From Candidatus Jordarchaeia archaeon (GTDB lineage: Archaea; Asgardarchaeota; Jordiarchaeia; Jordiarchaeales; Jordiarchaeaceae), in NCBI GenBank assembly GCA_029856435.1, contig JAHQXB010000023.1, forward strand, positions 1 to 21,979: 21,979 bases of DNA, read 5' to 3'. How positions within the stretch are numbered: the stretch's first letter is position 1; each line of letters starts with the position of its first letter. Positions 16,994 to 18,349 of the stretch are shown piece after piece. A program made the translations under genes and the position numbers. Under the pieces are notes generated by a model that did no database searches, was not told the DNA's origin, and saw nothing but the letters and a program-made list of their open reading frames with translations.

Positions 16994-18349
16994 ATGAAAG
17001 CTGAAGAGAGAGGAAAATATTGGAACCCAATAGTTGAAACCATGCCCAGAAAAGAAATTGAAGCACTCCAAACAAAGAGACTCATGCAAGAAGTAAGACA
17101 CGCCTATTATAACACTCCCTACTACAAAAAAAGCTTCACTGAAGCAGGAATCACACCCGAAGACATAAAAACCATACACGACGTAAACAAAATACCCATA
17201 CTCTACAAAGACCAACTAAGAGAATGGCGCGCAAAAACCGGAGACCCATTCGGAGGAGTACTTGCCATAGAACTAAACGAAAAAGTACTAACCATAAACG
17301 CCTCAACCGGAACCACAGGAATACCCAGCATATTCGCCTACACCTGGAACGACAGACAAGTAGCCACAGAACAAGAAACCCGAATGAAATGGATGAGAGG
17401 CTACCGACCAGGCGACCTAGTATACATGACAGGATTCCGATGGCACGGATACGTAGTACAAGCATACTCCGGAGCAGACCAAATAGGAGTACAATGCATC
17501 CTCGACTGCGGATACCCCCTACCCTTCCTAGCCCAAAAACACGTAATAACAATGAAAAACCTAAAACCAGACATCTACGCCGGACCCACACTAACACTAT
17601 ACGCTATAATAGAAGCCACAAAAACAATGAAAGAAGACCCCAACCAAATCTTCAAAACATGCAAATCACTTGAGATTGGGTACGGAGACGTGGTCACACG
17701 GGCGGTTAAGAGACGTATTGAGGCTGAGACTGGTTTTGATCCTGAGAAGATTTTTGATTGGGGTGGTGTTGCCGACCCCTTGTGGTACTATGGTGATTGT
17801 GAGTATCATGTGGGTAACCACTCGTGTGATGATTTGTTCTACACCAATATTTGTGATTTTGAGAGTCACGAGCCGGTGGCGGAGGGTGAGCGTGGAGAAA
17901 TTGTTATTACTAACTTGTTTGCTGAGGCTACGCCGATGTTGAGGTGGGGCAGTGAGGACACGGGTTTTCAGAGTTTGGAGAGGTGTTCTTGTGGTCGAAC
18001 CTATTCTCGGACGACTATTCTGGGCAGGGAGGCTTTCGCTGCGAACATTAAGGGTAAGATGACTTTTCCGTCGGAGATTGAGAACGCGTTGGGTGATATT
18101 CCCGGGTTTACGGAGTACTTCACTGTTCTTAAGTACAAGAAGGGGCCCATGGATACTCTGAAGATTAAGTTGGCTGTGGATGCAACCAAAATCAAGGATC
18201 GGGAAGACTTCGTTAAGCGGGTTAAGGATGCTTTGAGGGAGAAGATGGGTGTAGATTCCGAGGTTGAGATTGTGGAGAAGGTTTCGGATTTGCCCTTCGT
18301 GGGGCACAAGGTTATCAAACTTTTGGATTTAACCAAGGAAGCCAAGTAG
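16994..18349 (+). CDS. Phenylacetate-CoA ligase-family adenylate-forming enzyme, full length
   Basis: ASTGTTG P-loop, DWGGVAD, CEYHVGNH and CSCGRT (Zn-site-like), GEIVITNL.AEATPMLRW.SED, LGR hinge, FPSEIE, C-terminal GHK.IKLLDL. Confidence 0.92.
   Translation: MKAEERGKYWNPIVETMPRKEIEALQTKRLMQEVRHAYYNTPYYKKSFTEAGITPEDIKTIHDVNKIPILYKDQLREWRAKTGDPFGGVLAIELNEKVLTINASTGTTGIPSIFAYTWNDRQVATEQETRMKWMRGYRPGDLVYMTGFRWHGYVVQAYSGADQIGVQCILDCGYPLPFLAQKHVITMKNLKPDIYAGPTLTLYAIIEATKTMKEDPNQIFKTCKSLEIGYGDVVTRAVKRRIEAETGFDPEKIFDWGGVADPLWYYGDCEYHVGNHSCDDLFYTNICDFESHEPVAEGERGEIVITNLFAEATPMLRWGSEDTGFQSLERCSCGRTYSRTTILGREAFAANIKGKMTFPSEIENALGDIPGFTEYFTVLKYKKGPMDTLKIKLAVDATKIKDREDFVKRVKDALREKMGVDSEVEIVEKVSDLPFVGHKVIKLLDLTKEAK

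Follow-up and report, generated by a model that had tools for sequence, protein, structure and literature searches.

The window, that is, the whole stretch of 21,979 nucleotides that was analysed, carries on its plus strand a continuous reading frame of 451 codons (16994-18349) for a predicted PaaK-like (phenylacetate-CoA-ligase-type) adenylate-forming CoA ligase, and this gene contains the feature discussed here. Among PDB sequences its product matches 2-hydroxyisobutyryl-CoA synthetase (6HDW, E=3.9e-42, residues 7-429), phenylacetate-CoA ligase (2Y4O, E=2.9e-38) and 4R1L (E=5.8e-36), and its sole Pfam domain, AMP-binding_C_2 (PF14535, E=1.9e-11), occupies residues 354-445. The similarity over the full length, together with the C-terminal AMP-binding domain, argues for a PaaK-type CoA ligase. 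The gene directly upstream (15887-16957, plus strand) encodes a 356-residue paralog of the N-terminal part of the ligase and has no Pfam match; at most paralogous loci tblastn likewise detects a second match of about 30% identity (about 340 residues) upstream of a full-length ligase.

In the middle of the ligase gene the codon endings change abruptly from A/C to G/T, as a sequence-only reading of the window had claimed, and recounting reproduced each of its numbers. At 17582-17668, 27 of 29 codons end in A or C (the exceptions being GCT and ATG), whereas 22 of 23 codons at 17702-17770 end in G or T (the exception being AGA), and G+T rises from 15/60 at 17581-17640 to 40/60 at 17701-17760. The reading frame is unbroken across the flip, with neither repeat nor frameshift, and since the only Pfam domain covers residues 354-445 the flip does not fall on a domain border. 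The shift extends further than had been described and affects the whole frame. The fraction of G/T at third codon positions (K3) is 0.11 in codons 1-225 (A119 C81 G15 T10) and 0.78 in codons 226-452 (G90 T87 C37 A13; Fisher p = 2e-50). By maximum likelihood the change falls at position 17669 (log-likelihood ratio 112.6), with nearly equal scores up to about 17700 (e.g. 17699), so that the flip point and its transition zone (17669-17701) comprise the codons L-E-I-G-Y-G-D-V-V-T-R. No inverted repeat or cruciform was detected at the flip (Smith-Waterman score 22 versus 18.7 +/- 2.5 in shuffled sequences). Because first codon positions shift too (G/T from 0.43 to 0.60), amino-acid content would be altered as well.

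The flip separates two arms that reach beyond the gene. The A/C-rich arm of the plus strand (13500-17668) covers two minus-strand and two plus-strand coding stretches, including the whole upstream partner gene, and becomes stronger towards the flip: plus-strand K3 is 0.30 at 13749-14477 and 0.33 at 14660-15505 (both minus-strand genes), 0.16 at 15887-16957 and 0.11 at 16994-17668 (both plus-strand), while the keto fraction in 200-nt windows drops from about 0.45 to 0.30. The G/T-rich arm (17669-19000) consists of the 3′ half of the gene (K3 0.78 at 17669-18349) and the intergenic DNA beyond it, with keto fractions of 0.65 at 17701-18000 and 0.66-0.70 at 18601-19000. Contigs from three studies bridge the flip, and an assembly chimera is therefore rejected. 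An independent assembly of the probable source run covers 16900-18400 with one difference and even depth, another study's hot-spring metagenome has a 1176-base contig that covers 17167-18342 at 93% identity, and a 155-base contig from a third study bridges 17632-17786; this spanning evidence consists of assembled contigs rather than per-read coverage.

A genome-wide collection of such flips, which the same reading had proposed, revealed about 100-280 jumps from A/C to G/T, whereas opposite jumps are rare. At a log-likelihood ratio of at least 18 there are 100 up-jumps against 29 down-jumps; within genes the numbers are 42 against 3 at a ratio of at least 15, and 28 against 0 when K3 changes by at least 0.6 in either direction. 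Up-jumps occur about once per 17 kb, with a median spacing of 9.5 kb, and the mean skew profile is a sawtooth that has returned to 0.50 by 4-5 kb and is inverted in sign by 7-8 kb. The same excess of up-jumps is seen in a closed genome of the same genus. Three interpretations had been offered for the flip in the ligase gene: a point source of strand asymmetry, a recombination junction and an assembly chimera. Only the first agrees with our results, in that the skew peaks beside 17669, fades over a few kilobases on both sides, is independent of gene direction and belongs to a large set of jumps of nearly uniform polarity. A motif centred on the flips, which had also been suggested, was not found: no k-mer of 4-8 bases and no palindrome of 4 or 6 bases is enriched at the 100 up-jumps or the 42 intragenic flips, GGCC is seen 11 times within 30 nt against 10.9 expected, and ACTAGT (7 near flips against 1.5) does not survive 64 tests. 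The flips share no motif, palindrome or inverted repeat, so that nothing points to a site-specific enzyme, and this counts against the mechanism favoured below.

The flips do return to the same codons. The ortholog in G003 (95% identical) flips too, inside the single codon step GAC|GTG, and in PaaK paralog groups A, B and C the flip is at most a few codons away from the shared motif G-Y-G-D/E-I/V-V-T, which is conserved among the paralogs and not conserved in the distant PDB homolog. Six DrrA-like ABC ATPases flip no more than five codons from Walker B; the flip in EF-2 recurs in G009 and that in V-ATPase B in G021, which belongs to another family. The same codon is thus hit again in paralogs and, where other genes are concerned, in distant lineages, and flips are gained and lost between species of 82-95% protein identity. 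This recurrence at the same codon without a shared DNA motif is the part that specialists will find hardest to explain.

Several candidate determinants of flip position were considered. Cross-phylum conservation near five flips ranks at 0.08, 0.085, 0.135, 0.27 and 0.40, which lends weak support to the proposal that every flip lies on the single most conserved motif of its protein and does not establish it. A protein-composition boundary, sought in distant orthologs as a change between keto- and amino-rich codons at positions 1 and 2, was not evident at the flips (ranks 0.23, 0.48, 0.17, 0.20 and 1.0). The proposal that flips mark the genome's own mRNA intron sites was rejected, as the introns of tyrS (C81) and of the 2-oxoacid oxidoreductase alpha gene (C66) have no flip; EF-2 is the only flip that coincides with introns, and these are present in relatives only. 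No in-frame stops indicative of introns at the flip were found within the aligned parts of the PaaK paralogs.

The direction of the underlying substitutions can be read from a flip at codon 61 of ABCE1, which is seen in G000 alone. Changes were counted at third positions of G000 where three 95%-identical relatives agree. To the left of the flip all 19 changes are towards A/C (G>A 9, T>C 4, T>A 4, G>C 2), and to the right 32 of 33 are towards G/T (A>G 15, C>T 11, A>T 5, C>G 1), the remaining one being a within-class change. In total, 51 of 52 silent changes follow the direction of the skew, including the transversions, which are few (12). The outgroups G002 and G005 side with the trio by 30:12 and 28:15; the ABCE1 flip arose recently and in situ. 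Strand-biased mutation is also still active, as seen from polarised synonymous singletons in a four-species alignment of five 20-kb regions. In A/C zones keto-to-amino transitions amount to 82 per 1000 sites against 40 in reverse (p=2e-5), in G/T zones amino-to-keto transitions amount to 70 against 41 (p=0.009), and in neutral zones the values are 49 and 50; transversions in G/T zones are likewise biased, 28 against 5 per 1000 (p=0.002), on small counts of 7 and 8. Each of the four possible changes from a keto to an amino base on one strand (G>A, T>C, T>A, G>C) takes part, with no bias between A and C or between G and T, and the process acts in situ, in episodes and indifferently to gene direction. 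The current rate bias in the zones is about 2-fold, whereas a K3 near 0.12 or 0.87 requires about 7-fold; most zones are therefore decaying now, which fits episodes, though it was not predicted.

These observations lead us to read the flips as the product of episodic, point-anchored, strand-asymmetric repair or synthesis. The particular form that we favour, plausible although somewhat short of probable, is that the mirror-image pattern is a DNA-level footprint of one-strand resynthesis or heteroduplex repair around a recurrent lesion, filtered by NucS/EndoMS. A process anchored at about 17669-17700 would drive the freely variable plus-strand positions from G/T to A/C on the left; on the right of the anchor the same change would act on the minus strand, turning the plus strand G/T-rich, and the effect would die away over 1-4 kb per side. 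A lesion at the flip point is suggested by the geometry of the arms, and repeated one-strand resynthesis or heteroduplex repair would take place on both sides of it. NucS/EndoMS would then filter the outcome, in that errors arising via A-C, A-A or C-C mispairs survive, and the copied strand would drift to A/C and the template to G/T. In polarity the flip matches leading strands that set out from the point in both directions and, just as well, error-prone new strands that approach it.

The repair setting of the genome is compatible with this scheme. NucS_C is present (E=5e-32), whereas MutL and MutS_I, the mismatch-binding domain, were not found in the genome (97.8% complete), which has only a 36-bit match to MutS_V; for the lack of MutL and of the mismatch-binding domain, NucS appears to be the mismatch-repair enzyme here. 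A Y-family polymerase was not found in this genome either. It has been shown that EndoMS cuts G/T, G/G and T/T mismatches and not C/A, and that in wild-type Corynebacterium glutamicum the leading strand gains G and T (PMC6159521); the escape of A/A and C/C mismatches is our own assumption and is not taken from that study. NucS is present in each of the eleven patchiest of 31 Asgard genomes, although these represent about four lineages and the loci were picked from the flips of G000, so that the comparison speaks neither for nor against a role of NucS. Many NucS-positive Asgard genomes are flat, without patchiness, and NucS therefore cannot suffice. Moreover, the simplest break model (a break at the point, 5′-3′ resection and error-prone fill-in, the new strand gaining A/C) would predict the opposite polarity, so the NucS reading would need either biased processing of 3′-tail heteroduplex or synthesis toward the point.

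A bolder version, which we consider unlikely, holds that in archaea with NucS only a "recoding" triggered by breaks or strand invasion would strike repeatedly at the same conserved codons of paralogs and of distant lineages, rewriting silent sites over kilobases in mirror image, and would also underlie the GRINS of bacteria. Candidate triggers would be mobile introns or inteins in the course of homing, or foreign DNA that pairs abortively at ultra-conserved blocks, and the EF-2 flip, which is exactly where relatives carry an intron, might then be one recoding episode caught midway.

Deamination of exposed single strands could also produce the polarity, without extra assumptions, if synthesis or unwinding proceeding outward from the flip (by strand displacement or by break-induced or recombination-dependent replication) exposed the plus strand to the right of the flip and the minus strand to its left. 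Heat-driven conversion of C to U and of A to hypoxanthine would make the exposed strand G/T-rich, like the heavy strand of animal mitochondrial DNA, and the K3 of 0.05-0.95 seen here is of mitochondrial magnitude. Transitions make up 39 of the 51 directional changes in ABCE1, and relatives of the ligase gene occur in hot-spring metagenomes. However, the class-changing transversions (T>A, G>C, A>T, C>G), few as they are, also follow the skew, 12 towards and 0 against in ABCE1 and with the bias given above in the G/T zones, and deamination yields none of this kind. In addition, the replicative polymerases of archaea stall when the template carries uracil or hypoxanthine, which should limit the fixation of such changes. 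We judge deamination to have a low probability.

Local initiation of replication is less probable still. In this model each up-jump would be a weak origin with a G/T-rich leading strand on both sides, which accounts for the origin-like polarity, for the sharp rises and gradual falls of the sawtooth and for the density and spacing of the jumps, and is in line with the gain of G and T by the leading strand in a bacterium that has only NucS. Against it, the polarity produced by forks cannot surpass that of a whole replichore, and across 400 kb of the closed relative the keto fraction is 0.48, as opposed to 0.30 and 0.65 beside the flip. No origin-type recognition repeat or shared element was found at the jump, which lies inside a conserved coding motif and at homologous codons of paralogs; the skew does not persist over replichores; and the flips turn over between species as close as those mentioned above.

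Biased gene conversion has an equally slim chance. It would require that homeologous or foreign strands pair only at ultra-conserved coding blocks and that NucS cuts keto-keto mismatches in the flanking heteroduplex, so that alleles with amino bases win on the invading strand. Pairing limited to such blocks would place the flips at conserved motifs, and the model would account both for flips at homologous codons without a common motif and for the keto/amino spectrum. The conservation ranks of the five flips point in the same direction, but jointly they are weak (about p=0.05, Fisher combination). As for ectopic pairing with paralogs, the flip windows are no more similar to other loci of the genome than are other windows of the same genes (median rank 0.79). 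Furthermore, both halves of the ligase gene share one phylogeny, and an imported diverged tract would carry within-class differences, of which there is 1 among the 52 in ABCE1.

A transcriptional origin, in which divergent transcription or R-loops starting at the flip would expose the non-template strand on each side, is very unlikely. The polarity would match, and many of the flipped genes are probably highly expressed housekeeping genes. Nevertheless, the flip lies in the middle of the gene, with the divergent promoter region (15505-15887) 1.8 kb upstream, the 5′ half of the gene is A/C-rich on its sense strand, G/T does not prevail on coding strands overall (mean K3 0.46), and intergenic up-jumps prefer convergent gene pairs (18) to divergent ones (9).

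The two remaining explanations are extremely improbable. An abrupt change of style is what a junction between alleles of opposite strand bias, or a chimera, would be expected to look like; however, junctions should yield jumps of both signs, the pattern is also present in the closed genome, the flip is common to orthologs and to 65%-identical paralogs, and a recombination joint is rejected because the protein trees of codons 1-225 and 226-451 group species and paralog groups identically. Selection on synonymous codons, mRNA structure or translation speed, changing at the flip codon, would suit a pattern carried mostly by third positions and placed at the same codon in paralogs, and is rejected because the arms run on through intergenic DNA and adjacent minus-strand genes, with the bias inverted relative to the coding strand, and because intergenic jumps follow the same sign rule.

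We found no description in the literature of such a local, strand-specific mutation process. The flips at homologous codons of paralogs, the two recurrences in other families and the recent in-situ flip in ABCE1 are new. If our reading of point-anchored repair or synthesis is true, mutation would be a patchwork of short, intense, strand-directed episodes rather than a uniform background. In an episode, about three quarters of the silent sites that carry a disfavoured base by the flip could be replaced, against a few percent of change in the remainder of the genome, and dS, codon-usage and selection tests as well as DNA-based trees would be distorted. It would also connect the mismatch preference of NucS/EndoMS with genome composition in a way that can be tested, and might account for GRINS. 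For the archaeal group closest to eukaryotes, the flips may show where DNA lesions recur.

Several known systems resemble the flips in part. Bacterial oriC and the borders of human N-domains show an upward jump of T-A plus G-C skew with a gradual fall to the next one. The flips differ in their kilobase scale, as opposed to megabases or replichores, in their near-saturated amplitude, in their density of about one jump per 10-17 kb, and in their position inside conserved coding motifs, without an origin motif and with turnover between close species. Animal mitochondrial DNA has a near-saturating asymmetry of G+T versus A+C at silent sites, but its signature consists of transitions only and extends over the whole molecule, whereas transversions share the bias at the flips. 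In kataegis at breaks, clustered changes affect one strand and pass to the other at a point, and clusters at resected breaks, where the 3′ tails are exposed, leave G/T to the left of the break and A/C to its right, the reverse of the polarity seen here. Repair by NucS/EndoMS leaves a residual spectrum that enriches one replication strand in G/T (Takemoto et al. 2018, PMC6159521), and the substitution classes at the flips are those expected if amino-amino mismatches escape this enzyme. That effect is weak and chromosome-wide, whereas the flips are local, episodic and extreme, and the role of NucS in this archaeon is suggested by its presence only.

The closest published phenomenon is the skew of bacterial GRINS (2021, PMC8256042). 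GRINS are defined as regions longer than 500 bp in which the mean absolute GC skew and TA skew (150-nt windows, step 30) both exceed 0.15 and which are also duplicated, with more than 80% identity to another copy; they are linked to gene conversion and are particularly widespread in Streptomyces (PMC8256042). At 15887-18349 the mean absolute GC and TA skews are 0.24 and 0.37, and the two skews correlate with r = 0.79, compared with 0.03 genome-wide. Both skews thus exceed the limit for GRINS. The region differs from GRINS in duplication and conversion: its best other matches in the genome, C112 (70.8% over 2259 nt) and C69 (67.7% over 2439 nt), stay below 80% identity, and gene conversion between the copies is not seen, paralog groups A, B and C forming well-supported separate clades in both half-gene trees. 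Features of the flips that the GRINS description lacks are a strict polarity from A/C to G/T, a skew that decays with distance and extends over adjacent genes whichever way they point, and their occurrence in archaea. In both, the GC and TA skews are intense and positively correlated, third codon positions of working genes carry most of the signal, the sign changes abruptly inside one gene, equivalent places of homologous units are affected repeatedly, and the mechanism is unexplained. Actinobacteria depend on NucS (PMC6159521), as this archaeon appears to do.

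The window is one complete contig (C174, 21,979 bases) of a genome of 3.54 Mb in 181 contigs (97.8% complete). The flip lies in an uninterrupted plus-strand open reading frame of 451 codons (16994-18349), and the product is an adenylate-forming enzyme of the phenylacetate-CoA ligase (PaaK) type, matching 6HDW (E=3.9e-42) and 2Y4O (E=2.9e-38), with Pfam AMP-binding_C_2 at residues 354-445. The local switch described in the sequence-only reading was reproduced exactly on recount: 27 of 29 codons end in A or C at 17582-17668, 22 of 23 end in G or T at 17702-17770, and G+T rises from 15/60 (17581-17640) to 40/60 (17701-17760). 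The transition again takes about ten codons within one continuous frame, the best-scoring change point being 17669; in the 95%-identical ortholog of a sister species it is complete inside one codon. The effect is larger than first described, the G/T fraction at third codon positions (K3) being 0.11 over codons 1-225 and 0.78 over codons 226-452 (Fisher p=2e-50). No inverted repeat was found at the flip.

An assembly chimera, which had to be excluded, is contradicted at contig level by contigs of three studies that bridge the flip: a separate assembly of the probable source run covers 16900-18400 at even depth, differing once, a hot-spring metagenome contig from another study extends for 1176 bases over 17167-18342 at 93% identity, and a 155-base contig from a third bridges 17632-17786. 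A recombination joint, also suggested at the outset, is rejected because the protein trees of the N-terminal and C-terminal halves agree, placing the five paralog groups, and the species inside each, in the same layout.

The flip belongs to the DNA and not to the gene. Its A/C-rich arm reaches left across the preceding gene on the plus strand (plus-strand K3 0.16) and further through two minus-strand genes (plus-strand K3 0.33 and 0.30), the coding strands of which are therefore G/T-rich, and its G/T-rich arm extends into intergenic DNA, to about 19000. Since the arms cross opposite-strand genes and intergenic DNA, selection is ruled out, whether on codons, on translation or on the folding of mRNA. 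The full-length ligase (~450 aa) is directly preceded by an N-domain-only paralog (~350 aa), forming a two-gene cassette (15887-18349) present at five or more loci in the genome and its relatives, including contigs C112 (6001-8216) and C69 (10205-12598) of the same genome. Just 3' of the flipped gene, 18425-18611 and 18913-19094 have dozens of copies, 70-86% identical, which are dispersed across the genomes of three close relatives and resemble a small MITE-like repeat family.

Genome-wide collection of the flips, as had been proposed, gave 100 switches from A/C-rich to G/T-rich (up-jumps) against 29 in reverse (down-jumps) with 300-nt arms and a log-likelihood ratio (LLR) of at least 18, and 24 against 1 for steps of at least 0.30 with 400-nt arms. 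Within genes of both directions, third positions gave 42 up-jumps against 3 down-jumps (LLR≥15), and K3 steps of at least 0.6 gave 28 against 0. Because an up-jump is identical read on either strand, every gene with an up-jump starts A/C-rich and ends G/T-rich on its coding strand. The mean jump profile is a sawtooth, with 0.34 adjoining on the left and 0.63 on the right, which regains 0.50 by 4-5 kb and has reversed its sign by 7-8 kb. Windows of 300 nt at or past 0.38/0.62 make up 9.2%, against 0.004% expected, up-jumps on long contigs have a density of 1 per 17 kb, and 400 kb sampled from a closed congeneric genome (G005) hold 24 up-jumps against 7 down-jumps (LLR≥12). One stretch of ~300 bases in that closed genome (contig C1, about 2591286-2591597) has a strand without any G or T. 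Up-jumps are over-represented within 2 kb of contig ends (30/100 vs 17.9% expected, p=0.002; 22 left ends, 8 right ends), and skew zones may be places where assemblies tend to break.

The location of the flips is non-random, which is new in this analysis. Several ligase paralogs are present in the genome, and in groups A (the window gene), B and C, which share ~65% protein and 68-71% DNA identity, the flip falls within a few codons of I-D/E-T/I-G-Y-G-D/E-I/V-V-T in each of four close species. A paralog group at 42% identity has a weak flip at the same motif, and another at 35% flips ~75 codons earlier. The ortholog from G009, a genome of another family, lacks the flip and lies beside group C in both half-trees, so the A/B/C split predates the family split. 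In six DrrA-like ABC ATPases the flip is at most five codons from Walker B (LDEPT/xGLD, the slash marking the flip), ABC ATPases of other subfamilies have none there, and in UvrA too the flip is at LDEPT. The flips of two Cdc48 genes are two codons apart, and those of two lipoate-ligase-like genes, and likewise of two small GTPases, are in matching places. Single-copy genes flip at familiar motifs: at DTPG/H (EF-2), at the start of AHGAGR (RtcB), at the start of DITHPIPDLTGY (V-ATPase B), before TGDGVNDAP (a P-type ATPase) and at GHFGHIEL (RNA polymerase A'). All six genomes of the genus share the EF-2 flip with G009, and the V-ATPase B flip is found in 5/6 and a second time in G021, whose closed genome belongs to a different family. 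A test for the most conserved place was weakly positive (ranks 0.08, 0.085, 0.135, 0.27 and 0.40); the claim is therefore one of recurrence at homologous sites and not of maximal conservation.

The search for a centred motif, another suggestion of the sequence-only reading, gave no k-mer or palindrome common to the flips. DNA similarity to other loci is not raised in flip windows, distant orthologs have no step in keto (G/T) content at codon positions 1+2, and no flip accompanies the mRNA introns that this genome has in tyrS and in an oxidoreductase gene. In EF-2, the flip (codon 99/100) coincides exactly with a 217-base G/T-rich insert that the related genome G002 carries within the His codon, and lies at most two codons from a 29-base intron of three sister-genus genomes; the chance of this coincidence is estimated at ~5%, given the few interruptions seen. 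The catalytic DTPGH motif of EF-2 is interrupted at 1819-2034 of locus L168 (G002) and by the 29-base intron-like insert in L169, L170 and L171 (G007, G010 and G006), and a 31-base insert lies at residue 36/37 of EF-2 in G027. The RtcB open frame measures 423 aa in the window's genome (L105; contig C93, 1-3052), 442 in G005 and 485-510 in most relatives, and these lengths suggest that the N-terminal part of the first two may be a separate exon. RtcB of G042 (L132) has a ~1455-base insert, of intein size, near residue 35-44, and open frames of ~1000 aa occur in G050, G013 and G034.

Across five 20-kb regions the skew landscape of four close species is almost identical. The purD flip is missing in G005 and the V-ATPase B flip in G002, and the ABCE1 flip is limited to the window's genome, where K3 is 5-0-10% before it and 80-65-95-95% after it, the corresponding values in relatives 95% identical in protein being 20-40-70-55-35-35-45%. 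At third positions where three relatives agree, 19/19 changes left of codon 61 are toward A/C, whereas toward G/T are 32/33 in the hundred codons to the right and 53/72 farther right (A>G, C>T, A>T and C>G combined). Two outgroups agree with the relatives 30:12 and 28:15, and the change is therefore a burst in this one lineage. About three-quarters of the available keto sites in the left arm were converted, and neutral zones are ~7% changed. Import of a diverged tract is ruled out by the within-class differences, which number one. In older zones polarised synonymous singletons are biased about twofold toward the zone direction (neutral DNA is unbiased), which is too little to maintain K3 at its present values; these zones are thus relaxing now. 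The picture is one of episodes, then decay.

Transcription does not fit as the source of the skew: the ligase flip lies mid-gene, 1.8 kb past the divergent promoter region (15505-15887), coding strands have no overall G/T richness, and intergenic up-jumps favour convergent gene pairs. The amplitude is beyond ordinary replication: along a replichore forks already have their maximal polarity, and still the keto fraction of the closed relative is 0.48 over 400 kb. G+T-rich strands are usually explained by deamination while they are exposed as single strands, which yields transitions only, whereas the favoured changes here include transversions. Left of the ABCE1 flip the counts are G>A 9, T>C 4, T>A 4 and G>C 2, right of it they are A>G 15, C>T 11, A>T 5 and C>G 1, and 12/12 class-changing transversions are in the skew direction; in G/T zones amino (A/C)-to-keto transversions number 28 per 1000 sites vs 5 in reverse (p=0.002).

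The mismatch endonuclease NucS/EndoMS cuts G/T, G/G and T/T mismatches and not C/A, and in wild-type Corynebacterium leftover mutations add G and T to the leading strand (PMC6159521). NucS is encoded in the genome (E=5e-32); searches of this genome, at 97.8% completeness, found neither MutL nor the mismatch-binding domain of MutS, and one weak match only to the MutS ATPase domain. From the transversion spectrum and this gene inventory we infer a link between NucS and the skew. Among 30 related genomes, NucS (here contig C44, 5651-5980) is present in every one sampled from the window's order and in several other Asgard families, and was not found in sampled genomes of families f7, f8, f9, f11, f14, f15 and f16.

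If A/A and C/C were also left uncut, which is our assumption and is absent from PMC6159521, amino-amino mispairs alone would escape NucS, and an error-copied strand would gain A and C through all four changes and its template G and T. The plus strand would be the copied strand left of the flip and the template right of it. That polarity could arise from leading strands departing from the point with an error-prone lagging strand, equally from new strands heading toward the point, or from 3' tails at a break with keto alleles removed in heteroduplex; for a plain break, 5'-3' resection followed by error-prone fill-in would give the reverse sign. The proposal as a whole, a repair or synthesis process that is episodic, point-anchored and strand-asymmetric and is filtered by NucS, is tentative and falls slightly short of probable; its first, descriptive half is held much more firmly.

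Literature searches on Asgard or archaeal skew patches, on keto skew and on papers citing GRINS gave no description of kb-scale mirror flips. The region of the flip resembles GRINS, the duplicated skewed regions of bacteria (PMC8256042), in length, skew strength and GC/TA correlation, but lacks their defining copy of >80% identity, and this comparison showed no gene conversion in the region. The jump at a replication origin is alike in polarity and unlike in motif, persistence and stability. NucS/EndoMS discriminates by base class, as the spectrum observed here would need.
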